Source: a virus (Duplodnaviria; Heunggongvirae; Uroviricota; Caudoviricetes). Taken from it: DNA of 26,196 bases. The translations under genes and the position numbers were made by a program. Below are positions 2,089 to 23,795 of the stretch, piece by piece; within the stretch, counting starts at the first letter, position 1; every line of letters starts with the position of its first letter. The stretch is taken from IMG/VR virus record IMGVR_UViG_2874945390_000006, positions 1-26,196 of that record; one strand, given 5' to 3'. The notes beneath the pieces were generated by a model, which did not search any database, was not told the DNA's origin, and saw only the letters and a program-made list of their open reading frames with translations.

Positions 2089-2103
2089 CCACTTCAATCT
2101 GAC

Positions 2104-2181
2104 AACTGCCGAATCGTGACCCGACCGTCCTGATGCACGAGTTCCACAATTCGCGTCTTCAGTTCTTCCCGCTGTTCGGGA
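2104..2181 (-). pseudogene. 5' fragment (26 codons) of an unidentified phage gene downstream of the dnaC-like gene, cut by the IS911 right end
   Basis: Reverse complement reads GGAGGA-N5-ATG GCG AAA CCT TTT ACT CCC GAA CAG CGG GAA GAA CTG AAG... (MAKPFTPEQREELKTRIVELVHQDGRVTIRQLSD) and then runs straight into IS911 at 2103. Confidence 0.35.
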
Positions 2182-2212
2182 GTAAAAGGTTTCGCCATAA
2201 ATCCTCCTGAAA

Positions 2213-2959
2213 CTACTTAACAACCCTCGAATGGCTAACATTCGGACGCCAGCTCTCCCAGTTAAAATTCACCCAGCGCCCGCCGTTCATGACCATGCGA
2301 TCCATCACCCGCTCGCCGAGAAGTGTATTCATCGCTGCATGGTTAATATTTGTCAGCATCCCCACACCGCGTAACGATGCCGTCCGGCGATCAACAATCT
2401 GGTTCAGTACCACCTGCTCGTTTTTCGTATCCCGCTGCATGCCAATTTCATCCAGGACCAGCAGGTCAACACCACAAAGCTCCTGTAAAAATTTTTCACC
2501 GGATTTGCCGTTGTCGTAGCTCTCATGCAACACGCTCATGACATCGGACACGGTGACGATAATCACGCTACGCCCCTTCGCCATCAGCCGGTTGCCAATC
2601 GCGGCTGCAAGATGATTTTTTCCGGTGCCGGGCTTACCGCTGAACACAAAATTCGTACAGCCTGTCATCAGTTCGTCAGCTATGGATTTCGCCTGACTCA
2701 GTGCATGTCGCTGACCGTCGTTCTGCGCCCGGTAATTCGCAAACGAACACTTCCGGTGCAACGGCTGGATGCCGGAGCGGTTCAGGATTTTTTCCACCCG
2801 CAACTGACGATTCAGGCGGTTGATCTCCTCGCAACGTTTCTGGCCTTCAGCAAGTTGCCACTCGCGCCACTCCGCAACCGTTCTGAATGGGGCGGTTACA
2901 TGTGGTGGGGTCAGTCTGCGGATACGCTCCAGAACGCCTCCTGTCGCAATATTTTTCAT
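2213..2959 (-). CDS. DnaC-like replicative helicase loader (phage replication protein, AAA+ ATPase)
   Basis: 248 aa with Walker A FSGKPGTGKNHLAAAIG, Walker B DLLVLDEIG and the DnaC-like tail LGERVMDRM...FNWESWR; start overlaps the stop of the upstream initiator gene. Confidence 0.85.
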   Translation of the reverse strand: MKNIATGGVLERIRRLTPPHVTAPFRTVAEWREWQLAEGQKRCEEINRLNRQLRVEKILNRSGIQPLHRKCSFANYRAQNDGQRHALSQAKSIADELMTGCTNFVFSGKPGTGKNHLAAAIGNRLMAKGRSVIIVTVSDVMSVLHESYDNGKSGEKFLQELCGVDLLVLDEIGMQRDTKNEQVVLNQIVDRRTASLRGVGMLTNINHAAMNTLLGERVMDRMVMNGGRWVNFNWESWRPNVSHSRVVK

Positions 2960-2965
2960 GGTCTG

Positions 2966-4165
2966 TTACCCCCTGAAGCCTGGCGGGATCGCACTGTCCG
3001 GCAACGAGACGGTGTTAACCTGTCGGAGCAACGTCTCAGGCCGAACACCTTTCGGCGCGAACAGACCCTGGTATTCATTGGCGATGCTGTGTCGAATCAC
3101 CTGCTCAGGTGTAAAACCCTGCTGACGGAATTTTTCCAGTTCCCGTATCGCCCCGTTAGCGCCCTGCTCCGTTCGAATTGGTTTTCGCAATGCCTGCCTG
3201 AACTGGACCCACTCATGCCAGAGTGTTTCTGGCAACCAGTCGGGCAGATCAACTGACAACGGGTCAAATTTTTTCTGGCGAACAGCCCCACCGATAACCA
3301 GAATTCCCTGCTCGGTGTGCCTTGCGATATCACTGCGCCGCAAGACACATATCCCGGTTTCAACAGCACCGATTTTGAGCAGTGATTTCTGTCGCGGAGA
3401 ATTTCGGTCAAGCTCGATCCCACACCGGACACCGTTCCTGTCAGTCACGACGATATCAATCCGCCCTCCGCAACCGTCACCACGCTCTGGCACCGGATAC
3501 TCACGACAGACATCCAGGCCAGCAGCCTGCAACGCAACCACCGCAGAATTACAAAATTCCGCTGCAGTACCGCCAGATAATCTCCCCTCAAGCACTCCAG
3601 CCACAAAATCCCGAAACTCCCTTCCGGAAGGGAAGGGTTTGGGATGGGTTAGATCTGTTTTTAGAGCTTTATCTGTATCTTTATTAGTTGCCTTTGTGTT
3701 GGCATCATGTTCGAACACCACTCCAACATCTGTTTGAACACCTGTTAAATTTCTCTCTTGTTTTGTTTGAACATCTGCTTCCTTTCTGCTTCTTCTGGCC
3801 TGAACAGATGCTTTTCCTGCGGCTGATTTTTTGGTTAATTTTTCTCTGACAGATGCCAGATCTTCCTCAATCCGAAGATGCATCCATTCGTCGCCGTTAT
3901 CACAAAAAAACTCCCGCAAGGATGGTTCAACATCAACCCATCGCTCGTTAGTCAGACGGGCAATTTTTGCCAACCTGTTTTTGGGTATTGGCTTTCCTGT
4001 TTGCCAGTAATTGAACATCAGCAACAAATACGCGCCGTGCTCCTCTGCTGACAAATGCATGGTGTCAGCCAGGTAATCAGCTATGTACAGTTGCATGTAT
4101 GGTAATGCGGCCATAATTGCCCCGTATGATGCTGCCCGGTTGCTTAGAATAAGCACAAACAGCAT
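2966..4165 (-). CDS. Phage replication initiation protein, YdaU/DUF1376-like N-terminus with additional central and C-terminal domains
   Basis: N-terminal region MAALPYMQLYIADYLADTMHLSAEEHGAYLLLMFNYW resembles DUF1376; sits immediately upstream of and translationally coupled to the DnaC-like gene. True start may be the internal ATG at 4114. Central segment GRIDIVVTDRNGVRCGIELD is of unknown function. Confidence 0.55.
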   Translation of the reverse strand: MLFVLILSNRAASYGAIMAALPYMQLYIADYLADTMHLSAEEHGAYLLLMFNYWQTGKPIPKNRLAKIARLTNERWVDVEPSLREFFCDNGDEWMHLRIEEDLASVREKLTKKSAAGKASVQARRSRKEADVQTKQERNLTGVQTDVGVVFEHDANTKATNKDTDKALKTDLTHPKPFPSGREFRDFVAGVLEGRLSGGTAAEFCNSAVVALQAAGLDVCREYPVPERGDGCGGRIDIVVTDRNGVRCGIELDRNSPRQKSLLKIGAVETGICVLRRSDIARHTEQGILVIGGAVRQKKFDPLSVDLPDWLPETLWHEWVQFRQALRKPIRTEQGANGAIRELEKFRQQGFTPEQVIRHSIANEYQGLFAPKGVRPETLLRQVNTVSLPDSAIPPGFRG

Positions 4166-4273
4166 GGAAACTTTTGCTTAATGAACAATGACAGAATCGT
4201 CGGAAGACCTGAGGTAGCCTGAGTTTAACGGACACTCCTTCCTGAAATAGAATGGCATCAGAAGGAGCTAATA

Positions 4274-4576
4274 ATGAGCAGAAAAACCCAACGTTACTCT
4301 AAAGAGTTCAAAGCCGAAGCTGTCAGAACGGTTCTTGAAAATCAACTTTCGATCAGTGAAGGCGCTTCCCGATTATCCCTTCCTGAAGGCACTTTAGGAC
4401 AATGGGTTACCGCCGCCAGAAAAGGGCTCGGTACTCCTGGTTCCCGCACGGTGGCTGAACTGGAATCTGAAATTCTGCAACTGCGTAAGGCGTTAAATGA
4501 AGCTCGCCTTGAGCGAGATATATTAAAAAAAGCAACAGCGTATTTTGCACAGGAGTCGCTGAAAAATACGCGTTAA
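4274..4576 (+). CDS. IS600 OrfA
   Basis: 100-aa HTH protein; A7 run at 4525-4531 is the likely -1 frameshift site into orfB. Confidence 0.85.
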   Translation: MSRKTQRYSKEFKAEAVRTVLENQLSISEGASRLSLPEGTLGQWVTAARKGLGTPGSRTVAELESEILQLRKALNEARLERDILKKATAYFAQESLKNTR

Positions 4577-4611
4577 TCGAACAATGGCGACAACAATTTC
4601 CCATTGAAGCG

Positions 4612-5430
4612 ATGTGTCAGGTATTTGGTGTATCCAGGAGCGGTTATTACAACTGGGTACAGCATGAACCCTCAGACAGAAAACAAAGTGATGAGCGGCT
4701 AAAACTGGAGATTAAGGTGGCACATATCTGCACTCGCGAAACATATGGAACCCGGCGGCTCCAGACGGAGCTGGCAGAGAATGGCATCATCGTTGGTCGT
4801 GACCGACTGGCACGTCTTCGTAAGGAGCTAAGGCTACGCTGTAAGCAGAAACGCAAGTTCAGAGCGACTACGAACCCGAACCACAATCTGCCAGTTGCGC
4901 CAAATCTGCTGAACCAGACGTTCGCTCCTACAGAACCAAATCAGGTCTGGGTGGCGGACCTGACGTATGTTGCCACACAGGAGGGATGGTTGTACCTCGC
5001 TGGCATCAAAGATGTTTATACGTGCGAAATTGTCGGCTACGCCATGGGAGAGCGCATGACAAAAGAGCTGACAGGTAAAGCCCTGTTTATGGCGCTCAGG
5101 AGCCAGCGCCCACCTGCCGGGCTAATCCACCACTCTGATCGAGGTTCACAGTACTGCGCATACGATTACCGGGTCATACAGGAGCAGTTTGGTCTGAAAA
5201 CATCAATGTCGCGTAAAGGTAACTGTTACGACAACACTCCGATGGAAAGCTTCTGGGGAACGCTGAAAAATGAGAGCCTGAGCCACTATCGTTTTAATAA
5301 CCGGGATGAAGCCATCTCAGTAATACGGGAATACATTGAGATTTTCTACAATCGTCAGCGTCGTCACTCTCGTCTGGGGAATATCTCCCCGGCAGCCTTC
5401 AGGGAAAAATATCATCAGATGGCTGCTTAA
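4612..5430 (+). CDS. IS600 OrfB (DDE transposase catalytic part)
   Basis: 272-aa ORF in the -1 frame; that frame is open back to the A7 run, consistent with an OrfAB fusion. Confidence 0.85.
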   Translation: MCQVFGVSRSGYYNWVQHEPSDRKQSDERLKLEIKVAHICTRETYGTRRLQTELAENGIIVGRDRLARLRKELRLRCKQKRKFRATTNPNHNLPVAPNLLNQTFAPTEPNQVWVADLTYVATQEGWLYLAGIKDVYTCEIVGYAMGERMTKELTGKALFMALRSQRPPAGLIHHSDRGSQYCAYDYRVIQEQFGLKTSMSRKGNCYDNTPMESFWGTLKNESLSHYRFNNRDEAISVIREYIEIFYNRQRRHSRLGNISPAAFREKYHQMAA

Positions 5431-5473
5431 AAAAAGAACAAATGGTAGTGTCCGCTATTGCCAGTACACCTCA

Positions 5474-6762
5474 CTCTGGCCTGCTCGCTTTGTCTCTTCA
5501 ACAAAGAAATGGTTATCGGTTTCGGCTCCCGTAAAGAGGAATACGTCGACAGCACCGGTGACCCGAAAGCATTGTTCTGGAAGGCGCGCAAGTTCGTGGA
5601 AACACTACCTGTAGAGTTTCGCGGTTCGTGGAGCGAGAAGAAGCATGCGCCATATATGCGTGTTGAGTTTCCTGAAACTGGCGCGGTTATCAAAGGTGAG
5701 GCTGGCGATAATATCGGTCGTGGTGACCGTACGACCCTTTATTTTGTGGATGAGGCTGCTTTTCTCCAGCGACCATTACTTATTGATGCCGCGCTTTCTC
5801 AGACAACCCGACGTCGTATCGATCTCTCATCGGTTAACGGCATGAACAACCCCTTCGCACAGAAGCGGCACAGTGGAAAAATCCCGGTGTTTACGTTTCA
5901 CTGGCGTAGCGATCCGCGTAAAGACGATGAGTGGTATCACAAGGAGTGCGAGAAAATTGATAACCCAGTCATCGTTGCCCAGGAACTGGATCTTAATTAC
6001 CAGGCATCAGCAGAAGGCATCCTGATCCCCTCAGAATGGGTACAGGCTGCGGTTGATGCACATATCAGACTGGGCATTCAGCCCGGCGGGCAACGGCTTG
6101 GTGCAATGGATGTCGCCGACGAAGGGCGGGATAAAAACGCCTGTTCGCTCCGTTATGGCATCCTGCTGAATGACGTACAGGAGTGGTCAGGTAAGGGGAG
6201 TGACATCTATGACTCTGTGGTTAAGGTTTTTGGTCTGTGCGATGACTTTGGTGCCGATGAGTTTCGCTTTGATGAGGACGGATTGGGTGCTGGCGTTCGT
6301 GGTGATGCGCGCGCTATCAACGAACTGCGTGAAGCGGAGGGCATCTGTCAAATCACCGCCACTCCATTCCGGGGCAGCGGGAGCGTGTTTCATCCTGAAA
6401 ATGAAGCTGTTCCCGGTGATAATGGTAAACCGGCTCGTCTGAATAAGGACTTTTTTGTCAATGCCAAAGCCCAGGGGTGGTGGCATCTTCGCAAATTATT
6501 CCGCAATACATTTCGTGCACTACAGGGTATGGAGTATGACCCGGATGAGATTATTTCCATCAGCAGCACAATGGAAAATAAAGACCGGCTGTTGATGGAG
6601 CTGTCACAACCTACCTGGTCAAAAAATGCCACCGGAAAAATTCTTGTGGATAAGCAACCTGACGGAACGAAATCTCCAAACCTGGCTGATTCTGTGATGA
6701 TTGCTTATGCCCCGATGGAAATGCCCATCGTAATTTCTGATGACTTTATGGAGTGGATCTGA
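5474..6762 (+). pseudogene. Terminase large subunit, 5'-truncated (ATPase Walker A region missing) at the IS600 copy 1 right end
   Basis: Frame is open from the IS boundary; Walker B-like [10 protein letters not shown] is present but no Walker A GxxxxGK[ST] precedes it. Position immediately upstream of the portal gene with a TGATG stop/start overlap. Confidence 0.7.
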
Positions 6763-8303
6763 TGTGGCCGTTTAAACGAAAAGAACCGTCAGCGCCGGCG
6801 GTACCGGACAAACAACCTGAACCACAGCCACCGGAAATTAACGATGAGGTGATCGCTTCCGTCCGGCAGAAACCACGGAGGGAGTTTGTTCGCTATGAGC
6901 CACCACCGGGCGTTATCCCGGCACCGGTTCGCGATGCTGTGCTGGCAATGGATGCAATACCGTATGACACCCTGAACAGTCATTATCCTGATTTTGTTTA
7001 TGGTGGTTTCCCGGGCTATCCGTATCTGGCACTTCAGGCGCAGTTACCGGAGTACCGGCGTATGGTCAGTGTGCTTGCCGAGGAGATGACCCGTAAGTGG
7101 ATAAAGGTTAAGGCGGTCGGAGAAGGGGACGACAGCCACGCGTCACGCATAGCGCAGCTTACTGACGCACTGGAGCACTATAACGTACAGGACGTTTTCA
7201 GACTGGCGATTGAGCACGACGGCTTTTTCGGGCGAGGGCAGATTTATATTGATGTGCGTTCGCCATCGGGTATATCTGCCTGGACTGACCCGGCGGAGCT
7301 GGGATCCGGACTGTTTATTTCCGACAAAAAAATCCCGAAAGGTTCCCTGCTGGGGCTTCGTGTTATTGAACCCGTCTGGACGTATCCGGGTATATATAAC
7401 GCGGATAATCTGCTGAGTGATGATTTTTACCGTCCGTCCGAATGGTACGTAATGGGAAAAACGGTTCACGCCAGCCGCATGATTGATCTGATCTCCCGTC
7501 CGGTTCCGGACATGCTGAAGCCGGCCTACAACTTTGGCGGCCTGTCACTGGTTCAGATTGCTGAGCCTTATGTTGATAACTGGCTGCGAACACGCGACAG
7601 CGTGGGCGATATGCTGCATTCGTTTTCGCTGAGCGGGATTAAGACGGATATGACACAGGTATTAAGTGGTAAAAGGGACCCGAATTACGCAAAACGCGCG
7701 GAGTTGTTTAACCGTACCCGTGATAACCGCGGGCTGCTGATGCTGGACAAGACGAACGAAGAGTTTTTCCAGTTCAACACTCCCCTGAGCGGCCTCGACA
7801 CCCTTCAGGCGCAGGCACAGGAACACATGTTCTTTGTCAGTGCCATACCGTCCGTAAAATTCGCCGGGCTGAGCCCAACGGGACTGAATGCGTCGAGTGA
7901 GGGTGAAATCCGGGTGTTTTACGACACCATTGCTGCACTTGCCACCCGTCTTCTGAAGAAACCGCTGAAAAAGGTGCTGGATATTATCCAGTTGTCTGAG
8001 TTCGGCGATATCGATCCTGATATCACGTTTGAATTTGAACCCCTGCATGAGCTGACGCGCGAGCAACTGGCGAATATCCGTAAAACTGAGGCGGAAACGG
8101 ATCAGATTTATGAGAGCACCGGAGCAGTGACCAATAACGAAGTACGCGAACGGCTGGCGACTGCGCAGGACAGCCCGTACAGCGGTATTGACCTGAGCGG
8201 GGACATCGAAATTGACGACACTGAAATTGACAACACCGAAGAAAATCCGCCGCAAGGCCCGAATGCAGACCCTGAGGCGGATTTCACCCAACGCGGGGAT
8301 TGA
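6762..8303 (+). CDS. Phage portal protein
   Basis: About 513 aa, directly after the terminase (ATG 6762 overlaps terminase TGA 6760-6762, RBS GGAGTGG upstream), with the acidic C-terminal tail typical of portals ([14 protein letters not shown]...). Assigned by position, size and composition. Confidence 0.6.
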
Positions 8304-8421
8304 GGCCTGGTACCGCAGACAACTGGATAATGCCGTCAGTGGGATGCACAACAGTGTACTTTACTGGCTGCGGGCTGAGTACCGTAAAACAGACCTCGCG
8401 CAGGATGCGTCCCCGTTAACC
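8212..8421 (+). CDS. Small ORF overlapping the portal 3' end; possibly the displaced N-terminal part of the head morphogenesis gene
   Basis: 70-codon ORF ending in TGA that overlaps the ATG of the next ORF (ATGA); different frame from 8424-9032. Confidence 0.3.
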
Positions 8422-8423
8422 TG

Positions 8424-9032
8424 ATGCGTGGTGCCATGCAGCAACTTGCCCGGCGCTGGCAGAAAAATTTTGACGAAATGGCCCTGCGGCTGGCGAGGCG
8501 GTTTGCCGGTGATGTCCTGAAAAACAGCGATGCGTCACTGTACACTGCGCTCCGTGATGCCGGGTTTACGGTTCCTTTCCGTATGACAACGGAGATGAAT
8601 ACCGCACTTCAGGCCAGCATCACGGAGAATGTGAACCTCATTCGCTCCATCCCGCAGCAACATCTCCCCCAGGTGGAAACACTGGTCATGCAGTCTGTTG
8701 GCCGGGGACGTGACCTGAAAACGCTGACCGATGAACTGGAAAAACGTTACGGCATCACACGACGGCGCGCGGCGCTGATTGCCCGCGACCAGAACAATAA
8801 GGCAACGTCGGTAATGCAGGCCGCCAGACAGCGTTCGGTGGGTATCACTGAAGGTGTCTGGAGGCATTCCCGCGCGGGTAAAACATGGCGTCCGTCGCAT
8901 GTGAAGGCGAACGGTAAACGGTTTGACCTGCGAAAGGGGATGTTTCTGGATGGTAAGTGGGTACTGCCGGGCGAAGAAATCAACTGCCGGTGTGGCTGGG
9001 AGGCCGTTATTCCCGGACTGGAGAAAAAATGA
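8424..9032 (+). CDS. Phage head morphogenesis protein (Mu F / SPP1 gp7-like minor head protein)
   Basis: 202 aa; C-terminal region ...[24 protein letters not shown]...[31 protein letters not shown] resembles the Mu F domain; located after the portal gene. Confidence 0.65.
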
Positions 9033-10378
9033 TTATTACCGAAATGCTGGCGTTTGACCGGGCATCGGTAAGGCAGTTCGATAAAGTCGGTCGCCTCCAG
9101 ATTGAGCGCAGTAATCTCAGCAAGGCGAACGTCTGCGGTTATTTCGGGTATGAAATACCGGGGGCGGAAGCGCTGGGACTCGACCCCAAAAAACTTTATC
9201 AGCTTTACCGTGACCCCGATGAACTGCGCAAGGCAGTTTCAACCTTCAACAATATTCCCGTCCTGTGCCGACACAAACCCGATTATCCGGGCGCGCCCGC
9301 GCGCGAGTACCGGGTGGGGACGACTCATGCCAACAGCGAGTTTGACGGTACCTATCTGGTTAACGGCATGTCCATCTGGGACAACTCCGCCATCGCGGGG
9401 ATAGAAACGGATGAACAACGGAAAATCTCATCGTCATATGCCTATGTGGCAGATATGACGCCGGGAACCACCCCCGACGGTGAGCCGTATGACGGCGTTA
9501 TGCGGAATATCGTGGGAAATCATGTGGCCCTGGTCGGCGATGGCCGGGTAGGGTCGGACTGTCTTGTTATGGACTCTCTCCCTCAGGAGCTAAAACGCAT
9601 GAAACTGAGTAAAAAAGAAGTGGCGGTGCTTATCGCGCTGGGAACCTATCTTGCGCCGCGTCTGGCGCAGGATGCGGCTCCCGGGGATTTGTTACGCCTG
9701 ATGGCGCAGTATAAGCGTCCGGCAGCTATCGCCAGCGCGGTAAAAACTGCTTACAGCGAACGGCTGGCACAGGATATGGATATTGAACCGGCGGAGCTGG
9801 CGCAACTGATGGAATCAGCAGAAGCCGTACCGGAGCTGGTCGGGGATGATGATACCGGGTTAACTGACGAGTCGAAGGCATTTGATACCGACAGCCCGAT
9901 GGAAAGTGTACTGGCGTTGCTGTCCGGCAAAGTTCCTGATGATGTGCTGGAAAAAATTAAATCCGCACTGTCTCCGACAACCGACGAAGCCCCCGAAACA
10001 AAAGAGGCTGATGTGAAACCCGACGATGTGAAAGTCGATAAACCTGCGATGGATGCAGCAATCAGGCTGGCAACTGACCAGGCAACGAAACGGGCTGCTG
10101 AAAATTTCCGCGCCGTCCGTGTGGCTGAAGCTGAAGTGCGACCGCTGATTGGCGATGTGGTGGCGATGGACTGCGCCGAAGATGTTTACCGTACCGCGCT
10201 GGAACAGACGGGGATCGATATTCAGGGTATTCACCCCGGTGCGTACCGCAGCATGGTGAAGTTTGCCGTTGAGCAGAAGCAGACGGCCAAATCCTCTCCC
10301 CGTGTGGCGATGGATCAGGCCAGCGCATCGACGTTTGCGGCAGATTTCCCCGGTGCAAAACTGAAACGAGGTTACTGA
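9029..10378 (+). CDS. Putative prohead scaffold/protease protein (DUF2213-like N-terminus, acidic helical C-terminus)
   Basis: Likely start ATG 9029 ([23 protein letters not shown]...), overlapping the upstream stop; the track ORF starts earlier at 8957. Acidic Ala/Glu/Asp-rich C-terminal half typical of scaffolding proteins; sits between morphogenesis and capsid genes. Confidence 0.45.
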
Positions 10379-10379
10379 T

Positions 10380-10862
10380 ATGAATACTTTTCAGACACAC
10401 ATGAACCAGTACCCGGCACCGGGTATTCCGGGGGCGTTTGCCAGTGCTAACCCTCATGCCTCGTATGTGGCGGGAGATGGCGGGCTGATTACCGGCCCTG
10501 ACGGGCTGGTAATTGCCCGGTTTGCCTGGGTAACCAAAGGTGTTGCCGCTAATAAGGGGGCCGGCGCACCGGCGGGTTTTGTTCCTCGTGACGGGCAGGC
10601 TTCCATTGTGGAATGGCTGGCCGGGGACTCGAACACCATTTATCCGGGGCGTGAATGCACCCTGATGGTGTCGGGGGATTTCTGGGCGCTGACCACCACT
10701 ACTGCGACGATCGGGCAGAAAGTATTTGCCTCACTGGCCACCGGGGAGATAGCCACGGGGGCGGCTGGCACCTCGATGGCGGGGTTTGTCGAAACCTGGT
10801 TTTCCGTTGCCAGCGCTGCGGCGGCAAAAGAAGTCATTAAGATCAGTACCTGGAGCAAATAA
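10380..10862 (+). CDS. Putative capsid decoration / small head structural protein
   Basis: 160-aa Gly/Ala-rich protein immediately upstream of the major capsid gene, 2 bp after the preceding stop. Confidence 0.4.
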
Positions 10863-11890
10863 TGAATAAATTTAAACAGCATTATGCGACGGCAAGTCGC
10901 GACTACGGGATTATTCTTCCCGGAGCACAGGCTTATTTGCCGAAGGAGTACGCTGCCGATTACGGACTGGCGATGGACGCGCAGCCTGCGCTGGTCACAG
11001 CGGCTAACAGCGGTATCCCTGCGTATTTCACCAATTACGTTGAGCCAGAACTGATCCGCGTGCTGGTGACGCCGATGAAAGCCGCTCAGATTCTGGGCGA
11101 AACCAAAAAAGGTGACTGGACGACACTGTCGGCACAATTCCCGATTGCAGAATCTGACGGGGAGGTGAGTTCCTACGGGGATTACAGCAACAACGGGGTG
11201 GTAAGCGCAAACGTCAACTGGGTACCGCGCCAGAGCTATCACTTCCAGACCTTCACCGTATGGGGCGAACGTGAGCTGGAGATGTACGGCGCAGCCCGTA
11301 TTGGCTGGGCGGCAGAGCTGAACGTGGCGTCAGCACTGACGCTGAATAAGTTCCAGAATAAGTCCTATTTCTACGGTATTGCCGGACTGACGAACTACGG
11401 TTTGCTGAATGATCCGTCGTTATCTGCACCAATCACCCCGGATACCGTTGACGGTAAACTGAAGTGGGACGACAAGGACGGACAGGGCGTGTATGACGAT
11501 ATCGTGAAACTCTTTGAGCAACTGGTGAAACAGACTAACGGTCATATTGAGCGTACCGACAAAATGAAACTGTGCATGTCGCCGCTGGCAGAGGTGAACC
11601 TCACCAAAACAAACCAGTACAGGGTTAACGTGTCCGATCTGCTGGCGAAAAATTTCCCGGCGATGACCATTGAAACGGCGGTGGAATACACCTCTGACGC
11701 TGGCGAGCTGGTACAGCTTATCGCGGAGCGTCTGGGTGAACAGGATACAGGCTATTGCGCTTTCACTGAAAAAATGCGCGCCCATGCGGTAGTGGCAGAT
11801 ACGTCTTCCTGGAAACAGAAAAAATCCGCTGGTACCTGGGGGGCGATTATTCGCCAGCCGCTGGCGTATGCACAAATGCTGGGGGTGTGA
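10862..11890 (+). CDS. Major capsid protein
   Basis: 342-aa ORF in the canonical position after scaffold and decoration genes; ATG overlaps the upstream stop (TAATG). Confidence 0.6.
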
Positions 11891-11893
11891 GTT

Positions 11894-12241
11894 ATGGCTG
11901 AAATGGTAACAGTGGGCTGTAAACTGCCGAACGGTCTGGTGCTGGAAGTGGGTCAGAAACGGGTTCAGGTGGCAGGCTGGCGGAATAACGCGGTTAAAAT
12001 TGTGGGGGGCTATGGTCTGACGCAGGTCGATAAGGTGTTTTTTGACGCCTGGCTGGCGGAGCACGGACAGCAACCTTATGTGAAAAATGGCGTTATTTTT
12101 GCGCAGGATAAGGCGAACAGTGCAGTCTCGCAGGCTACGGAGCAGAAAGCCGTTAAATCCGGCCTTGAACCGCTGCCGCAGAAAAATCCGGCTCCGGGCG
12201 TTAACCGCAATGATGAAGTGATGGGTAAACCTCAGGAGTAA
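11894..12241 (+). CDS. Hypothetical small head-associated protein
   Basis: 115-aa ORF tightly packed between the capsid and connector genes; no recognisable motif. Confidence 0.4.
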
Positions 12242-12246
12242 ACGCT

Positions 12247-13278
12247 ATGGGTACGGTGACGTTTGACTGTCGGATGTTTGTCAGTCTGTACCCGGAGTTT
12301 TCCACGGTGACACCGGAGCTACTGACGGCGGTGTTTAACCAGGCGACCGCGTTGTACCTGGATAACACGGACGACAGTCCGGTTACCGACCTGAAGGAGC
12401 GGGAACAGCTTCTGTTCCTGCTGGTTGCGCATCTGTGCGCATTGCGGGGGCTGGGAAACGGGAGAGACGGGCAGGCTGGTCTGGTGGGGCGTATCACCAG
12501 TGCGTCGGAAGGTTCTGTATCGGTATCGGTGGATAATAGCGGCAGTAATGATGCGTCGTGGTGGTATCTCCAGACCCCCTGGGGTGCTGACTACTGGCAG
12601 GCGACAGCGCCATACCGCTCAATGCAGTATCATTCCGGGGGGCACCTTCGCGATATCCGGGGCATTATTACCGGGGATACGGGAGGGGCGTCGATGGTAA
12701 ATAAAGTCACAGGTGGCAAACAGTTCCGGCAGACGCTGAAACAGGTTGCCGCGAACCTTTCATTGGGTAAAAAACTCAAAGTGGGTTTTCTTGAGGGAGC
12801 AACTTACCCTGACGGTACGTCAGTGGCTTATATTGCCGCAGTTCAGGAGTTTGGCGGAAGAGCGGTCATACCCGCCCGTGAGCAGACGCTCCACTTTCGC
12901 TATAACGAAAAAACGGGAGAAACCGGGCACCGCTTTGTCAAAGCCGGTAAAGGGAATTTTGTTCAGGATGTGGTTATTCCTGAGCACACGGTCACCATTC
13001 CCCCCCGTCCGTTCTTCCGTAAGATGATCGAACATAAAAGTCCCGAATGGGGCGAAAAAATGGCGACCTTATTACGGGCGAATGATTTTGATACTGCGAC
13101 CGCTCTGGTGTGTATGGGAGAACATATCAAAGGGCAGTTGCAGATGTCTGTTCGCGACTGGGAAAGTCCGCCCAACGCTGCATCCACTGCCCGGCAAAAG
13201 GGTTTTAACAACCCGCTTATTGAAACCGGACATATGATGGACAGCGTTGATTATTCTGTAGACGGGGGCAAAAAATGA
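12247..13278 (+). CDS. Head-tail connector-like protein (DUF4054-like N-terminal region fused to an HK97 gp10-like C-terminal region)
   Basis: 343 aa; N-terminal [38 protein letters not shown]... resembles DUF4054; C-terminal part (...[36 protein letters not shown]...) resembles gp10-family tail-completion proteins; Gly-rich linker between them. Confidence 0.4.
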
Positions 13279-13640
13279 ACTTTCACGGTATTGTTTCCGG
13301 CGCAGTACGTCGGGTAAATCCCTTTACAGACGCGCTGGTTTATCGTTCCCGCGGGAGTACACAGCAGGCAGATTATTCCCGCGTACCTGAGTATGAAGAT
13401 CCGGTTTCCGTCAGGGTGCAAAAGCAGGCTGTCACTCAGGCTGATTTACGTCATCTTGATAATCTTAACCAGCAGGGAGTTTTCGCCACATTGTATACCG
13501 ATGGTAACTGGTGCGGGCTTAACCGTGCCCGGCAACAGGGAGGCGATAAATTTGTTATTGGCGATGAAACGTGGCTGGTGATTGAGGTACCGGAAATCTG
13601 TCCTGACTGGACGAGGGTTATTGTATGCCTTCAGGTGTGA
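13275..13640 (+). CDS. Hypothetical phage head-tail joining protein
   Basis: 121-aa ORF overlapping neighbours in the usual ATGA style; position between connector and neck genes. Confidence 0.4.
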
Positions 13641-14171
13641 CCCTCTCCGTTACGGAAAGCGCTCTTTATCAGGCCCTCGGTGATTATCTCCGGGGGCTTT
13701 TTTTCTGATGCCGGGATTGAACGAACGCAGCAGAACCAGGTCCCGATGCCTCAGGGGAATTTCATCACCATGACGGGCATTGATGTTACCGGATTATCCA
13801 CTGCGGTAGTGGCATATTCTGCGCCAGCGCAGGCTGGTGAGGGCTCTCAGCATATCACCCGTACCACAAAATGGCGTTGCCAGCTTGATTTCTACGGCCC
13901 TCACGCGGCAGATAACGCGCAGGTGCTGGCAACGCTTTTCCGGTCTGAATTTTCCGTACGGCTTTTCCGGCAGGGCGGTGGGCTGATTTCCCCGCTGTAT
14001 TGCTCAGAGCCCTTTAACACCACATTCCCCAACGGTCAGCAACAGTATGAACCGCGCTGGACGCTTGATATTCAGATGCAGATTAACCCTGTGGTCACAA
14101 CTTCCCTGATGTTTTTTGACAACGTGATCACCCGGACAACGGAGGCTGATAATGCCAATTCCACTCAGTAA
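13625..14171 (+). pseudogene. Neck/tail terminator-like structural gene interrupted by a +1 frameshift in a T7 homopolymer (13698-13704)
   Basis: ATG 13625 with RBS GAGGG 8 nt upstream gives [27 protein letters not shown] and stops at 13706-13708; the remainder of the protein (SDAGIERTQQNQVPMPQG..., track ORF 13680-14171) continues in the +1 frame. Removing one T from the run fuses the two. Confidence 0.5.
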
Positions 14172-15636
14172 AGATGTACAGATAAATCCCGGTGTGCTGG
14201 CTGTGGCGGGTAATGCCGTCGATCTTAACGGCCTGCTGTTGACCAGTAATCCGTTACTTCCGGTCGGCACTGTGGTTCCGTTTTCCTCTCCGGATGATGT
14301 GGCCGCGTATTTTGGTGCATTATCCGATGAGTACGCACGCGCTCAGCTTTATTTCCAGGGCTTCAAAAATGCCACCAGGACGCCGGGGCAATTGTTGTTT
14401 TCCCGTTTCAGTCCTGCCCCATCGGCGGCCTGGTTACGTAGCGGTTCGTTTAAGGGCGCGACTGTTGAACAGCTACAAAAACTTTCCGGCACGCTGATGC
14501 TGAGTATTAACGGGAAAAGCGTCAGCATTGAAGTGAATTTTAACGGTGTCGCCAGCTTCGCCGCTGCTGCAACGGCACTACAGACAGCGCTGACCGCAGC
14601 AGTGGCTACAGTGGTATTCGATACCACACAGAATGCTTTTGTCATTACTGTCGCCGGGGCGAAACCCGAGAGTACCACGATAACGTTCGGCAGTGGATCG
14701 GCAGCAGAACTCCTGAAGATGACCAGTAACACCGGTGCGGTGATATCCCGGGGCGCGCCTGTATCTGATGTCCCTGACACAATGGCAGCCATTAAGGCCG
14801 CTTCCCAGCAATGGGCGGGTTTTTCCACGGTATCTGAGGTCACTGACGAGCAACACCTGGCGTTTTCTGCATGGGCAAACGGGCAGGGCAAGCGTTACTT
14901 TTATGTGGCATGGACAACCAGCGGCAACGCCAGAGTAAAAGGCAGTACTGAACACATCGCTTACCAGATAATTGCTGTCAATAACTACAGCTCTGTTGTA
15001 CCTGTTTTCGCGACTGATGGTAACCGGGCTGCAGCGGTACTGGGGTATGCAGCGTGCCTTGATTTTGTCCGACCAGAGGGGCGTGTATCATTCAAGTTCC
15101 GCGAGTATGAGGGGCTGGCCGCTGATGTTACCAGTGGCAGCGATTATGATGCGCTGATCGCCGCAGGTTACAATTTCTACGGAAAATATGCGGAAAACAG
15201 TGTGGTGGAAGATTACTGGGCGGATGGCACTATTACCGGTGATTTTAAATGGCTGGACAGTTTCTGCGGGCAAATCTGGCTGAATGCCAGTTTGCAGGGG
15301 GCGGTGATCGCGTTATTCAAGTCAAACCAGACGATCCCCTACAACAATGAAGGGCGGGCGCTGGTTGCAGCGTCAATGAGTGACGTTATCCAGCAGTACA
15401 AACGCTGGGGAGGGATCCGTGAAGGGGGGACACTGACGGAGGCGCAGAAGAAACAGATTAACAATGTTGTGGGGGCAGATGTTTCTTCAACGTTGTTTGC
15501 CACCGGCTATTACCTGTATATCGGCGATATGCTTCCCTCTTTGCGGGCAACCCGTAGCAGTCCGTCCTGTACGCTCTGGTACTGTGACGGCGGTAGTATC
15601 CAGAAACTTGTTATTGCATCCACGGAGGTCCAGTAA
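14152..15636 (+). CDS. Contractile tail sheath protein (DUF3383-like)
   Basis: 494 aa, RBS GGAGG 8 nt upstream of ATG 14152; size and sequence character of phage sheath proteins; followed directly by a tube-sized gene. Confidence 0.7.
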
Positions 15637-16083
15637 ATGTCGGGTAACAACAACACCATCACTGCGGCGGATGCCATTATCACGCTGACAGTGAATAATC
15701 TGTATCCCTCCGGCGTACGACTTCAGGGATTTGCAACAGATAACGTTTATGGCACCGATCCACTGGTACTGGCGGAAACTGCCCGCGGTATTGACGGTAA
15801 ACTGTCCGCGGGATTTGTGTACAGCAACATTATCCAGACGTTTCATATCATGCCGGATTCCCCCAGCCGGGATATTTTTGATACTTGGTTAACCACATCC
15901 CGGGCCAGTCGGGCTGTATTCCGTTGTAACGCTGTCGTCCTGCTTCCGGCGATTGGCCGTAAATATACCTGCGTGAATGGCGTACTCAAACAATGGAAAG
16001 CGCTGCCTGATGCAGCTCGTACGTTGCAGCCAGGGCAGGCGGTTATTGAGTGGGAAACCATTACTCCGGAGGTTTTTAACTGA
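15637..16083 (+). CDS. Tail tube protein
   Basis: 148 aa, GGAGG RBS, directly downstream of the sheath gene. Confidence 0.6.
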   Translation: MSGNNNTITAADAIITLTVNNLYPSGVRLQGFATDNVYGTDPLVLAETARGIDGKLSAGFVYSNIIQTFHIMPDSPSRDIFDTWLTTSRASRAVFRCNAVVLLPAIGRKYTCVNGVLKQWKALPDAARTLQPGQAVIEWETITPEVFN

Positions 16084-16487
16084 TGGCCCGTAAAGAGAAA
16101 TTTATCACTATTGAAGGTCAGGGACGGGATAAGGGCAAGGTATTTCATCTTACCGAAATGTCTGCCTCACAGGCGGAATGGTGGGCGATGCGTGCCATTA
16201 TGGCAATGGGGCGTGGTGGCGTGGAGTTACCGGATGATGTTCGTAGTCTGGGGATGGCTGCGCTTGCCCTTGAAGGGCTGAAAGCATTATCGAAAATTCC
16301 GCCTGATGAGGCGCGTCCGTTGATGGATGAAATGATGGACTGTGTGCAGTTTGTTCCCGATCCGAAAAAACGCAGCATCCGGAGACCGCTTGTTGAAGAG
16401 GATATTGAAGAAATCATTACCCGTCTTAATCTGCGTGCGGAGGTCTTTAAGCTGCATGTGGATTTTTTCGCTACCGTCGTCAGCTAG
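16083..16487 (+). CDS. Tail assembly chaperone (pre-tape-measure gene)
   Basis: 134-aa acidic protein between the tube and tape measure genes; ATG overlaps the tube stop. Confidence 0.45.
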   Translation: MARKEKFITIEGQGRDKGKVFHLTEMSASQAEWWAMRAIMAMGRGGVELPDDVRSLGMAALALEGLKALSKIPPDEARPLMDEMMDCVQFVPDPKKRSIRRPLVEEDIEEIITRLNLRAEVFKLHVDFFATVVS

Positions 16488-16528
16488 ATATCCCCCCGCG
16501 TTATCTCGACCCCGACAGACCGTTCGGG

Positions 16529-16711
16529 GTGGTGGATTACGTTAATGTTCCCCGTACCATTGCGACCGTTATCTCCTCCGGTAAGGCTTCAAAAGCTGAA
16601 CTGGATTCTGTCCTTGGTGTGCAGGACTTATGGGATCTGCTGGAAATAATTCATGTGGATGCCCATAACGAACAGGTGATACAGGAGAACAGAAATGGCG
16701 CAGGTACTTGA
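16529..16711 (+). CDS. Small hypothetical ORF preceding the tape measure gene (possible second chaperone component)
   Basis: 60-codon ORF with GTG start; overlaps the tape measure start by 17 nt; does not overlap the chaperone ORF. Confidence 0.3.
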   Translation: MVDYVNVPRTIATVISSGKASKAELDSVLGVQDLWDLLEIIHVDAHNEQVIQENRNGAGT

Positions 16712-16776
16712 TGAGCTTGTTCTGTCCCTCGGGATTGATGACAGGGACTTTACTGCCGGGGAACAGGCAGTACATG

Positions 16777-16779
16777 CTG
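16777..16779. repeat. 3-bp target-site duplication (CTG), left copy, of IS600 copy 2
   Basis: CTG immediately before the IS end at 16780 matches CTG at 18044-18046. Confidence 0.7.
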
Positions 16780-16822
16780 TGAGGTGTACTGGCAATAGCG
16801 GACACTACCATTTGTTCTTTTT

Positions 16823-17641
16823 TTAAGCAGCCATCTGATGATATTTTTCCCTGAAGGCTGCCGGGGAGATATTCCCCAGACGAGAGTGACGACGCTGACG
16901 ATTGTAGAAAATCTCAATGTATTCCCGTATTACTGAGATGGCTTCATCCCGGTTATTAAAACGATAGTGGCTCAGGCTCTCATTTTTCAGCGTTCCCCAG
17001 AAGCTTTCCATCGGAGCGTTGTCGTAACAGTTACCTTTACGCGACATTGATGTTTTCAGACCAAACTGCTCCTGTATGACCCGGTAATCGTATGCGCAGT
17101 ACTGTGAACCTCGATCAGAGTGGTGGATTAGCCCGGCAGGTGGGCGCTGGCTCCTGAGCGCCATAAACAGGGCTTTACCTGTCAGCTCTTTTGTCATGCG
17201 CTCTCCCATGGCGTAGCCGACAATTTCGCACGTATAAACATCTTTGATGCCAGCGAGGTACAACCATCCCTCCTGTGTGGCAACATACGTCAGGTCCGCC
17301 ACCCAGACCTGATTTGGTGCTGTAGGAGCGAACGTCTGGTTCAGCAGATTTGGCGCAACTGGCAGATTGTGGTTCGGGTTCGTAGTCGCTCTGAACTTGC
17401 GTTTCTGCTTACAGCGTAGCCTTAGCTCCTTACGAAGACGTGCCAGTCGGTCACGACCAACGATGATGCCATTCTCTGCCAGCTCCGTCTGGAGCCGCCG
17501 GGTTCCATATGTTTCGCGAGTGCGGATATGTGCCACCTTAATCTCCAGTTTTAGCCGCTCATCACTTTGTTTTCTGTCTGAGGGTTCATGCTGTACCCAG
17601 TTGTAATAACCGCTCCTGGATACACCAAATACCTGACACAT
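16823..17641 (-). CDS. IS600 OrfB (transposase catalytic part)
   Basis: 272 aa, near-identical to the copy 1 OrfB (I/R, E/A and T/A differences). Confidence 0.85.
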   Translation of the reverse strand: MCQVFGVSRSGYYNWVQHEPSDRKQSDERLKLEIKVAHIRTRETYGTRRLQTELAENGIIVGRDRLARLRKELRLRCKQKRKFRATTNPNHNLPVAPNLLNQTFAPTAPNQVWVADLTYVATQEGWLYLAGIKDVYTCEIVGYAMGERMTKELTGKALFMALRSQRPPAGLIHHSDRGSQYCAYDYRVIQEQFGLKTSMSRKGNCYDNAPMESFWGTLKNESLSHYRFNNRDEAISVIREYIEIFYNRQRRHSRLGNISPAAFREKYHQMAA

Positions 17642-17676
17642 CGCTTCAACAGGGAATTGTTGTCGCCATTGTTCGA

Positions 17677-17979
17677 CTAACGCGTATTTTTCAGCGACTC
17701 CTGTGCAAAATACGCTGTTGCTTTTTTTAATATATCTCGCTCAAGGCGAGCTTCATTTAACGCCTTACGCAGTTGCAGAATTTCAGATTCCAGTTCAGCC
17801 ACCGTGCGGGAACCAGGAGTACCGAGCCCTTTTCTGGCGGCGGTAACCCATTGTCCTAAAGTGCCTTCAGGAAGGGATAATCGGGAAGCGCCTTCACTGA
17901 TCGAAAGTTGATTTTCAAGAACCGTTCTGACAGCTTCGGCTTTGAACTCTTTAGAGTAACGTTGGGTTTTTCTGCTCAT
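17677..17979 (-). CDS. IS600 OrfA
   Basis: 100 aa, identical to the copy 1 OrfA; T7 run 17722-17728 is the reverse complement of the slippery A7. Confidence 0.85.
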   Translation of the reverse strand: MSRKTQRYSKEFKAEAVRTVLENQLSISEGASRLSLPEGTLGQWVTAARKGLGTPGSRTVAELESEILQLRKALNEARLERDILKKATAYFAQESLKNTR

Positions 17980-18043
17980 TATTAGCTCCTTCTGATGCCA
18001 TTCTATTTCAGGAAGGAGTGTCCGTTAAACTCAGGCTACCTCA

Positions 18044-18046
18044 CTG
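18044..18046. repeat. 3-bp target-site duplication (CTG), right copy, of IS600 copy 2
   Basis: See left copy at 16777-16779. Confidence 0.7.
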
Positions 18047-19979
18047 CCCTTAACCGGCTCACGACGGTGATGGAAGGTGTCGCTGACACATTCAGTCAGG
18101 GACAGAAGAAAACCAGTGAATCACTGGAAAAAACCGGAAAAGATGCTGATAAAACGGCCCGTCGAATGGAAGATGCCGGGAAACGGGCGTCCCGTTTTTT
18201 TTCAGGGATCCGTAGCGAGATTCTGGCTCTTGCGGGTGTCAGTCTGACGCTGGGGGGGCTGAAGAACCTGGTAACAGGTTTTGCCCGTGATCTGAACCGT
18301 CTGTCCGTGGAATCTGATGCTTTTGGCATGAAGGCCAGAAATCTGGACGGATGGTTACGGGCTGCGCGGGCAAATAATGTTGATGAAGGGGAAATGTCTG
18401 GGGCATTTTCCCGGCTTGCAAATGCAAAAGCGGCCTTCAGAGCCGGAAGGTCCTTTGATCCTGTGTTACAGGATTTGTTTCAGGTTGCAGCCAGGGCGGG
18501 CATTAGTGTTGATTTAAATACTGACAGCACTGAAGCCATCATGCGCAAGCTGGCGGTTATTTTTCCGCGACTGACAAAGTCCGAACAAACTGCCTACGGC
18601 AACGCGCTGGGCTTCAGTTATGCCGGACAGCAGTTTCTTGGCTCCGGTCATGCGCTGAAAGATGTGGACGAATTTACTTCCCGTTCGCAGGTTACGCCGG
18701 AGCGTATAGCGCTGGCCCGTAAGCTACGAAAAGAGCTTGTTGAGCTCGAACAGACCTGGTCCGGCATCGGGATGACGATTAGCACCGCGTTGATGCCGTA
18801 CGCGCTGAAGCTCAGCCACTGGCTGGAGACACTCGGTGACTGGATGCAGCAACATCCGGAGGAAGTGAACAGGTTTATCACCACATTTCTGAATGACGTT
18901 GAGTCAGTGGCCTCCCTGGCGAATAAGGCTGCCGGAGAACTGGGGGGCTGGCAGAATGTCATTATTACGCTGATCGGGCTGAAAGTGGCGTCATGGGTGC
19001 GGGGGCTGACAAAAGCCCTCAGTGGCCCCGGAGGCCTTCTTTTTGCGATAACGGCGCTTTACCCGGTTGTTGACGGATTACTGACATCCATTGTTGGCAG
19101 GGAAAATAAGGACTGGCTGGATTCACATGGTTTTTTCTGGGCTTCAGACGGGACTTTCTTTTTCAATAAGAAAGAGATGGAGACGTATCAGACAAAACTG
19201 GATGCCGGAGAAAAGCCTGGCAACATCACCCGGGCACAATCACCCACAGTATGGCAGCAGGGCATGCTGGATACTCAGGCTTCTCAGGCAACCGGGAGGG
19301 AAGCAGCCTTCGGTGAATCCTGGCTACAGGGTATGCGTGCGACGCAGGAAAAACTCGGTAATGCCATGCAAAACCGCCAGCGACCGACGAAGACCGGGGA
19401 AGCCCTGTTAGGCTGGCTGCAACCGAAACTGTCTCAACTGGAGGAAAAATATAACCTGCCGCCCGGACTGCTGCGCAGCGTTGCGATCACCGAATCCCGT
19501 GGTAATCAGTTTGCCGTCTCACCTGCTGGTGCGATGGGACTGTTTCAGTTCATGCCGAAGACGGCCAGTGAATTTGGTCTGAGGGGGAACGATGCCTTTG
19601 ATCCCGAAAAAGCCGCTGATGCCGCCGCGAGAAAACTTGGTGGCCTGATACGTTTTTTTCATGGCGATCTGGCTAAGGCTCTGGCGGCATATAACTGGGG
19701 AGAGGGAAATGTTCAGCGTAAGGGACTGGCTGCTGCTCCGGAGGAGACCCGCAACTATATTCCGCGGGTGCTGGCGAACCTGCCTTATCCGGGTGCGGCA
19801 ATGGCCATACGGTCGCGCCATCCTGCGCCTGTATCGCAGTCCACCGTAACGGAAACCACGCATATCGGGACACTGAATGTCACCACAACGTCGGACAATG
19901 TGAAGGGTATTACCGATGACGCACGTCGGCGTATCACGAATTCGGCGCTTGTGTCGGTTTATTCCAGCGGGGTAACAGG

Positions 19980-20430
19980 ATGAGTTTTTCTTTCGATAAT
20001 ATTTCCCTGAATAACTTTTCGCTCAGTGAAAGTAACGTACTGAGTGCAGTTCGTGGCGGCGGTGTCCTGGGACTCATTAACAGTGTACTGGCACCGTCAT
20101 TCGGTATTTATTACGCACGGAATGATCCGGCAGGTGCCCATCAGAAGGGTGGCAAACCTTTCTCCCCGGATTCTTTTGTTGTCGTTGAGGTGGGCGCGGA
20201 GGCTTCTGTTTCCACCGTCCCCGTGGAGCAGGGGGCTTATACCACCTTTAATAAAATCCAGAGATCGCCGGAACTGCATGTGACTTTCACTGTAGAGGGG
20301 TGGACGGCCTTTTCCGGATCCGTCCCGAACCTGACAAATTTTTCCACCACCTCGCGGACGAATGTGCTGGAAACGCTTGAAAGGATGCGTACCACGGCAG
20401 GACTCTACGATATTGAGACGCCGGACAAGA
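19980..20430 (+). pseudogene. Tail-associated protein gene following the tape measure gene, 3' end replaced by the IS66-family element
   Basis: ATG 19980 overlaps the tape measure stop (ATGA); the ORF runs into the IS inverted repeat at 20431 and terminates inside it (track ORF 19980-20459). Confidence 0.45.
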
Positions 20431-20512
20431 GTAAGCGCCCCATCAGCGACGTCTTGTGAAAATTGTCCTGTCTGGCAACAATCGCGCCCATCTATATAGA
20501 TGGACACGAACG

Positions 20513-21187
20513 ATGAATTCCCAGACAAAAAAAGATATTCCCTGCTTCCGTTCTTATTTGCCTGATGCCCTGCGTTTAAGATTTGAAGATAAACTGACCA
20601 TCCGGGCCATCGCTCAGCGTCTGGGTCTCAGTCATTCCACAATACATACGCTTTTTCAGCGATTTCTTGCATCCGGTATCGCATGGCCATTGCCCGATTC
20701 AGTTTCATTCGCTCAACTTGACGCCATCCTTTATGCCAACAGAAAGAAGGAATTAACAGAGCCTCAAATCAGAGAAGGCTCATGGCGAAAAGAACGGCGA
20801 ACCAGCTATAGCCGTGAATTTAAGGTCCGTCTGGCTAAGCAGGCGTTACAGCCTGGGGCTGTTGTTGCCCGGATCGCCAGAGAACACGATATCAATAATA
20901 ACCTGCTGTTTAAATGGAAAAGCCAGTACGAGGACGGCTTACTGAGCGATGATGACATACAGGAATGCATGCCTGTCCCGGTGGCACTGACTGATACGCC
21001 GGAGCCGACCAGACCAGTTACAAATCCCTTCTGGCGTAACAAGCATGATGAGCGCCCTGAGGGGGCTCCCGGAAACGTCCCACGGTGCGAGCTGCATCTT
21101 AAATCAGGTGTGGTAAAACTGTTTGACCCTCTCACTCCGGAACTGTTACGGGCGCTAATCCGCGAAATGAAAGGGGGTATCCGATGA
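20513..21187 (+). CDS. IS66-family TnpA (Orf1, HTH accessory protein)
   Basis: Start at ATG 20513 (MNSQTKK...); contains ...RRTSYSREFKVRLAKQALQPGAVVARIAREHDINNNLLFKWKSQYEDG typical of IS66 Orf1. The track ORF begins at 20456, inside the inverted repeat. Confidence 0.7.
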   Translation: MNSQTKKDIPCFRSYLPDALRLRFEDKLTIRAIAQRLGLSHSTIHTLFQRFLASGIAWPLPDSVSFAQLDAILYANRKKELTEPQIREGSWRKERRTSYSREFKVRLAKQALQPGAVVARIAREHDINNNLLFKWKSQYEDGLLSDDDIQECMPVPVALTDTPEPTRPVTNPFWRNKHDERPEGAPGNVPRCELHLKSGVVKLFDPLTPELLRALIREMKGGIR

Positions 21188-21531
21188 TAACGCTGCCGAC
21201 CGGTACCAAAATCTGGATCATCGCTGGCATCACAGATATGCGTTGTGGCTTCAATGGCCTGGCTTCGAAGGTGCAGAACACGCTGAAAGATGACCCGTTC
21301 TCCGGGCATATCTTCGTCTTCCGGGGCCGCAGTGGCAAAATGGTGAAAATACTGTGGGCCGATCGTGACGGGTTATGCCTGTTCGCCAAACGCCTGGAAC
21401 GGGGCCGCTTCGTCTGGCCGGTGACCCGGGAAGGGAAAGTGCACCTGACGCCAGCTCAGTTATCCATGCTACTGGAGGGGATCGCGTGGCAACATCCCAA
21501 ACGGACAGAACGGCCTGGCATCCGGATATAA
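21184..21531 (+). CDS. IS66-family TnpB (Orf2)
   Basis: 115 aa, MITLPTGTKIWIIAGITDMRCGFNGL...ILWADRDGLCLFAKRLERGRFVWP, the conserved IS66 Orf2 family. Confidence 0.85.
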   Translation: MITLPTGTKIWIIAGITDMRCGFNGLASKVQNTLKDDPFSGHIFVFRGRSGKMVKILWADRDGLCLFAKRLERGRFVWPVTREGKVHLTPAQLSMLLEGIAWQHPKRTERPGIRI

Positions 21532-21592
21532 CCCGTGATAAAACAAGGGAATGAACAATTAACTCCCCGATGATATTGAGCTGCTTAAAGCC

Positions 21593-23157: not shown

Positions 23158-23189
23158 TCCTTACGCTACGTACTTCTCGGGGCGCTTAC

Positions 23190-23795
23190 ATTGGTACGAC
23201 GAATGCGTTAGGTGGAAGTTCAATCGTTTTAGGAGATAACGATACCGGGTTTAAACAAAATGGCGATGGTCTGCTTGATGTTTATGCGAATGGACAGCAT
23301 GTATTTCGTTTTCAGAATGGCGTGGCTATTGCTTTTAAGAATATTCAGGCCGGAACTGCCAGAAAATTCACGTTATCCAGCGCCAACAACTCCACGAAAA
23401 ATGCAGCGTTTTGTTTGTGGGGTAATCCATCCAGGCCTGTTGTTGCAGAGCTTGGTGATGATTCAGGCTGGCATTTTTTCAGCCAGAGAAACCCGGATAA
23501 CAGCATAGTGTTCACTGTTAACGGACAGGTAATTCCGTTAAATTACGGAAACTTCGATGCCCGCTATAAATATCGAACAGAGGGGGTACAGGATGTACGG
23601 TATGGCCATGAAATGTATTACAGCCCCGGCAGTAACACCGTTTCGTGGAGATTTTGCGCACCTTCGGGACACGGGCTGTCAGGGATGGCGATATCGGATA
23701 CCGGCCGTAACTCAGCGGATAACGTTGACGGTGTGTATTACCGACCACTGCAAAAACTGATTAATGGCACCTGGTATAACGTAGCGAGTATTTAA
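23190..23795 (+). pseudogene. 3' fragment of a side tail fibre gene (receptor-binding C-terminal region), 5' end lost at the IS66-family right end
   Basis: Frame is open from the IS boundary with no upstream start in phage sequence; ends ...YYRPLQKLINGTWYNVASI, resembling the C-terminus of lambdoid Stf proteins; a tail fibre assembly gene follows 3 bp later. Confidence 0.6.

Follow-up and report, generated by a model that had tools for sequence, protein, structure and literature searches.

The two copies of the insertion sequence (IS) IS600 in a 26,196-nucleotide stretch of DNA (IMG/VR record IMGVR_UViG_2874945390_000006, positions 1 to 26,196; hereafter the window) differ at seven positions, and it is probable, at roughly 80%, that they reached their places independently and from different IS600 sub-lineages. 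This reading is based on the target duplication that copy 2 possesses in its own right and on its four identical siblings, together with the alternative four-base cluster of copy 1 and a substitution that copy 1 has in common with another Shigella boydii. Neither copy is the direct parent of the other. IS600, an element of the IS3 family, was originally reported from Shigella sonnei. The window matches CP026836.1, an accession given as S. boydii in PMC12817139, with 100% identity. Both copies are given below with their haplotypes, which are written as the bases at IS positions 367/390/393/394-520/725/1027.

IS600 copy 1: 4210..5473, plus strand, full length (1264 bp), haplotype ATCA-TAA, flanks ACC / CTC
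IS600 copy 2: 16780..18043, minus strand, full length (1264 bp), haplotype GCTG-CCG

A gap-free alignment of copy 1 with the reverse complement of copy 2 yields 7 mismatches over 1264 nt and no indels (99.45% identity), and the two copies are the arms of a 1264-nt inverted repeat, which a repeat scan reports as 1265 nt with 99% complementarity. The first-pass annotation, made by a model from the sequence, had placed both copies exactly, asked for this alignment and reported differences in at least three codons of orfB. All three are real, and the count was too low, as four further differences are present. The open reading frames and the differing sites are the following.

orfA of copy 1: 4274..4576, plus strand, 100 aa, HTH_Tnp_1, stop TAA
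orfA of copy 2: 17677..17979, minus strand, 100 aa, same protein as orfA of copy 1, stop TAG
orfB of copy 1: 4612..5430, plus strand, 272 aa from ATG, rve / DDE, with Cys40, Glu108 and Thr209
orfB of copy 2: 16823..17641, minus strand, 272 aa, the consensus IS600 OrfB, on 359 contigs
A7G slippery run of copy 1: 4525..4532, plus strand, predicted -1 programmed frameshift site
IS 520: TGC in copy 1 (base 4729, T), CGC in copy 2; OrfB Cys40 versus Arg40
IS 725: GAA in copy 1 (base 4934, A), GCA in copy 2; OrfB Glu108 versus Ala108
IS 1027: ACT in copy 1 (base 5236, A), GCT in copy 2; OrfB Thr209 versus Ala209
Four-base cluster of copy 1: 4576..4603, plus strand; A, T, C, A at 4576, 4599, 4602, 4603 (IS 367, 390, 393, 394)
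Four-base cluster of copy 2: 17650..17677, minus strand; G, C, T, G at 17677, 17654, 17651, 17650

The three OrfB differences are all non-synonymous. The remaining four are confined to 28 bp (IS 367-394) that comprise the orfA stop codon and the linker of OrfAB, the fusion predicted from the position of orfB in the -1 frame of orfA; its 385 aa equal the length annotated for copy 1 in the source record. At IS 367 the orfA stop codon of copy 1 reads TAA and that of copy 2 reads TAG, and the earlier statement that OrfA is identical thus holds for the 100-aa protein and fails for the orfA DNA. Read in the -1 frame of OrfAB, the cluster amounts to I102V, I111V and two silent changes, and the two 385-aa fusions differ at 5 residues. 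Under random placement, four of seven differences would fall within 28 bp with P ~0.001; their clustering is non-random. This cluster, which the first-pass annotation did not mention, is the clearest lineage marker of the pair.

Searches of 5,426 complete E. coli genomes and of PLSDB (72,556 plasmids) returned best matches with 3 mismatches to copy 1 and 4 to copy 2, counts that follow when the bit scores, 2318 and 2313, are set against the ~2335 estimated for a perfect match. The widespread IS600 therefore has the haplotype ATCA-CCG, with the cluster of copy 1 and the OrfB of copy 2. Copy 1 combines this consensus cluster with three OrfB substitutions (R40C, A108E, A209T), and its triple-substituted OrfB is on one contig only among ~15 billion proteins, the combination occurring on no other. 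For such look-ups the 272-aa OrfB variants were used, since the 385-aa fused variants are uninformative for exact matching (the consensus fusion is on 2 contigs). Copy 2 differs from the consensus by the four-base patch, which turns the TAA of orfA into TAG and brings I102V and I111V into OrfAB; its remaining 1260 positions are those of the ATCA consensus.

Copy 2 shares its GCTG state with an IS600-like element of ~93% identity on virulence plasmids of Shigella and enteroinvasive E. coli (EIEC). Two representatives of this relative are identical to copy 2 over IS 223-409 (L018) and IS 299-409 (L019); the closest sites that tell the latter apart from IS600 lie at 298 and 410, and copy 2 is consensus-like at both. 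The relative was found on 129 Shigella plasmids and is annotated as 'IS600 ORF1/ORF2' in pCP301 and as 'IS3 family' or 'ISSfl11 family' transposase in RefSeq. Outside the shared cluster it differs from both window copies at ~7% of positions; it is a distinct element and a candidate donor of the patch. Exact 81-mer and 61-mer queries for the copy 2 mosaic had no match in the E. coli genomes, PLSDB, the GTDB representative genomes or the JGI metagenomes. Most likely the cluster arose as a short recombination tract and not by point divergence, and the lineage of copy 2, as judged from these alignments, is a mosaic with a putative foreign tract of 28-111 bp just 3' of the predicted frameshift stem-loop. 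Short-patch recombination or gene conversion from the ~93% relative into an IS600 copy would be the most likely source of the patch, with transfer probably running in that direction and amplification following afterwards.

Copy 2 is a simple IS3-family insertion in a phage tape-measure gene, as is evident from its target duplication and from the uninterrupted site in the prophage of EIEC VL46, which lacks an interruption at the site of copy 1 as well.

First target-site duplication of copy 2: 16777..16779, CTG
Second target-site duplication of copy 2: 18044..18046, CTG

The empty site of VL46, GTACATGCTGCCCTTAACC, corresponds in the window to GTACATGCTG-[IS600]-CTGCCCTTAACC, with a clean 3-bp duplication of CTG, and the same junction is present in a second assembly (QWSV01000228.1). 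Comparison with other IS600 copies of the chromosome, as the first-pass annotation had suggested, covered 8 copies including both window copies, all within the first ~1.6 Mb. Seven of them share the OrfB of copy 2 and five, copy 2 among them, are identical over 1264 nt. The four siblings (L008, L009, L012 and L013) lie in the same chromosome, and two of them have 3-bp duplications of their own, TTT and ATG; the remaining two copies with the same OrfB (L014 and L011) carry the ATCA cluster. Being identical to four siblings, copy 2 belongs to a recent burst that came from a single master sequence. A sub-lineage specific to this chromosome would thus have transposed recently and repeatedly, including into the tape-measure gene. 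The earlier claim that neither copy is a fresh duplicate of the other is borne out by the seven differences and by these siblings elsewhere in the chromosome. One of the two ATCA copies (L011 2617-3862, CP026836.1 ~809.7-816.5 kb) has an 18-nt deletion of IS 317-334 in which the A7G run is lost; its OrfA is called as 94 aa and it is presumably unable to make the OrfAB transposase.

The substitutions of copy 1 have different distributions. T520 (R40C) had no exact match in 382 plasmid records with 1,440 IS600 places or in 2,776 E. coli records with 5,265 places. A725 (A108E) was found in only one other IS600 copy, at mglA in S. boydii PSSP01000001.1; that copy has an ATCA background and is otherwise free of differences. 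A1027 (A209T), likewise alone, was found on 23 contigs, on a background of the S. flexneri type (169T, 621G, 816T), and at a minimum of three loci, two of them with target duplications. A conservation set of 108 OrfB homologues, all less than 90% identical, shows variation at positions 40 and 108; position 209, which lies three residues ahead of the catalytic Glu212, has Ala in 104 homologues and Ser in the other 4. That A209T inactivates copy 1 was considered and dropped as a firm conclusion in view of the S. flexneri loci. As copies with A209T have spread in S. flexneri, they are at least mobilisable. The PSSP01000001.1 copy (L021 4376-6862) lies in an mglA-like ABC transporter gene and is itself split at IS 324-327, just past the slippery site, by another IS with 4 bp duplicated.

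The surroundings of copy 1 are less regular. Its left flank stops precisely inside ydaT, a gene that is intact in EIEC (L015, L016), and its right flank enters terL at about nt 333 after two unmatched bases, so that terL is without its first ~331 nt. The block of early genes to the left is inverted relative to the late genes. With no target duplication, and with an inverted early block joined to a 5'-truncated terL, copy 1 marks an IS-associated rearrangement, and we interpret its missing duplication as the result of later rearrangement. On the mechanism at this junction and on the relative ages of the two insertions we infer rather than observe: the likely routes would be an inversion involving two copies of IS600 with a subsequent deletion, or an exchange between prophages by recombination. 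Directly after copy 1, at 5474-5475, the window has CT where terL of VL46 has GA; the next 11.3 kb are 99.75% identical.

Several points weigh against independent arrival from different sub-lineages and against the recombinational origin of the patch. Copy 1 is bounded by ACC (4207-4209) and CTC (5474-5476), and its arrival by transposition at this place is undemonstrable. Its three substitutions rest on one assembly. The background of A1027 is a different one in S. flexneri, which implies recurrent mutation or a second small exchange in copy 1. Sampling of the chromosome was partial, and retrieval through the OrfB of copy 2 leaves out copies with variant OrfB or with a fused annotation. As to the cluster, GCTG could be ancestral, kept in a basal S. 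boydii lineage, while the worldwide ATCA would have been derived by conversion. Two diverged relatives indeed carry C, T and G at 390/393/394, with G at 367 in L018 and L019, and an intermediate haplotype, ATTA, in L006 and L007 (another genome) permits some stepwise change. However, copy 2 matches the ATCA consensus at the remaining 1260 positions, the combination of GCTG with a consensus element was found in one chromosome only among the collections searched, and its rarity, its restriction to one lineage and the identity of its copies suggest a derived state. An ancestral GCTG, a proposal that concerns the cluster only, is thus a minority view, unlikely but to be taken seriously, and transfer of the tract into the lineage of copy 2 remains the preferred explanation.

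Explanations that do without separate arrivals fare worse. Local hops of an IS are frequent and the copies are 11.3 kb apart, so it is conceivable that one gave rise to the other within the prophage and that the seven differences accumulated later by point mutation in place; the non-synonymous nature of all OrfB differences would suit unconstrained drift. Yet copy 2 has not drifted, being equal to four copies elsewhere in the chromosome, and the clustered differences match the haplotype of a related element base for base, with copy 1 in the consensus state. Independent hits on those four sites and bases would have a probability of ~1e-7, as estimated from ~74 differing sites per 1098 nt, and a parent-daughter relation is very improbable. 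Equally improbable are errors of a repeat-rich long-read assembly. Multi-copy elements are hard to polish, and the OrfB variant of copy 1 is confined to a single contig, but misassigned reads pull toward the common sequence and would not give rise to states that the sampled copies lack. Both ATCA and GCTG recur in several copies, A725 and A1027 are each present in independent assemblies, and indels, the typical long-read error, are lacking. The least credible proposal of all is a composite transposon in which the inverted pair moved the 11.3-kb segment as a unit. Two inverted full-length copies do bracket a discrete segment; however, the outer flanks of the pair show no duplication (ACC precedes copy 1 and CTG follows copy 2), the duplication of copy 2 spans that copy's own two ends, and in the intact prophage of VL46 the segment runs on without a break into the sequence past copy 2. 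It was therefore already in place when the IS arrived. A duplication around the whole unit, and a unit foreign to its surroundings, were both sought and not found.

Independent arrival from different sub-lineages accordingly modifies an earlier claim, namely independent transposition from different donors. Distinct master copies or sub-lineages are supported; a simple transposition of copy 1 into its position is not demonstrable, and horizontal acquisition from different organisms is unsupported. That products of recombination between the copies could be told apart is correct, as the seven diagnostic sites serve this purpose, and inversion or gene-conversion products of the inverted pair should be recognisable in read data. 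None is evident in the assembly: copy 2 is pure GCTG-CCG and not chimeric, both of its flanks and the CTG duplication are intact, and the segment with its right flank is collinear with VL46 and not inverted.

Judged by their sequences, both elements can be classed as ordinary full-length IS600 of the IS3 family. Each is 99.7-99.8% identical over 1264/1264 nt to RefSeq loci annotated as 'IS3-like element IS600 family transposase' (E. coli, EIEC and Shigella plasmids), and both share with the known type the length of 1264 bp, a 100-aa orfA, a 272-aa orfB and the A7G site. The terminal inverted repeats are imperfect and of the TG...CA form (TGAGGT...CGGACAC at both ends). OrfB scores 330 bits against NF033516 (transpos_IS3, NCBIfam, cutoff 160), and its product has the Pfam domains rve, rve_2, rve_3 and HTH_21. 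The catalytic D116 is invariant and E212 is present in 107 of the 108 homologues; both residues are kept in both copies. Identity, overlapping reading frames, the DDE/rve domain and the TG...CA repeats thus all point to IS600. The 3-bp duplication, which also characterises the type, was found for copy 2 and two of its siblings and is missing at copy 1.

A strong stem-loop is predicted at IS 325-365, 3' of the slippery run, and is the same in both copies. In predicted foldings a weak hairpin downstream of it differs between the GCTG and ATCA alleles, and the patch could alter how efficiently frameshifting occurs or how active OrfAB is. Compensatory pairing within the patch was considered and is unsupported, the strong stem-loop being unchanged. 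The patched allele is present in at least five identical copies in the chromosome; that it is an altered, more active IS600 which drove the recent burst is nonetheless doubtful.

These findings fit the IS600 expansion and allelic intermingling already documented in Shigella and EIEC, and are known biology in that respect. Expansion of IS1, IS2, IS4, IS600 and IS911 in Shigella has been described (Hawkey et al., 2020; PMC7373316), with many IS600 per chromosome, identical copies at different sites, inactivation of genes and prophages, and IS alleles common to Shigella, EIEC and pINV. Nothing substantive distinguishes the window from that picture; the short mosaic tract from the ~93% relative is an allele-level detail, and a non-identical pair of IS600 is ordinary for an IS-laden S. 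boydii chromosome. The significance of the result goes little beyond bookkeeping. The four-base patch is a convenient marker of the chromosome-specific burst lineage in this S. boydii strain, and as a small case of mosaicism between related IS it can distort allele trees built on the assumption of point mutation alone.

By gene content, the surroundings of the pair appear as a heavily degraded prophage next to ttcA in the S. boydii chromosome, with the following parts.

Truncated integrase: 1-843, phage gene adjoining the ISEc52-like element
ISEc52-like element of the IS3 family: 844-2096, 94% identical to ISEc52 of EIEC FDAARGOS_944
Rac-like early genes, left flank of copy 1: 2093..4209, minus strand, DUF977 fragment, ydaV, ydaU and the 3'-terminal 32 nt of ydaT
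Prophage late genes between the copies: 5476..16779, plus strand, 5'-truncated terL, portal, head, sheath, tube and the start of the tape-measure/lytic transglycosylase gene
Rest of the tape-measure gene split by copy 2, and first baseplate genes: 18044..20430, plus strand
ISSfl3 (IS66 family): 20431-23192, replaces ~5 kb of baseplate genes and is followed by tail-fibre genes

The 11.3-kb segment between the copies is collinear with the VL46 prophage and 99.75% identical to it, and a search of a phage collection with this inner segment returned distant terL matches only. Other insertions accompany the IS600 pair. The ISEc52-like element lies directly between the truncated integrase and a truncated DUF977 gene; in EIEC FDAARGOS_944 the same type of IS adjoins an intact DUF977 gene. 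ISSfl3 has terminal repeats beginning with GTAAGCG, and its tnpC is split into two open reading frames (21593-22597 and 22594-23157). The baseplate stretch that it replaces corresponds to L001 22690-27770 in VL46. Beyond the right end of the window (L003 18403-21852), the tail-fibre genes are followed by genes for a ZnuA-family binding protein, an ABC ATPase and two ABC-3 permeases, a four-gene layout that we take to resemble the sitABCD iron/manganese transporter.

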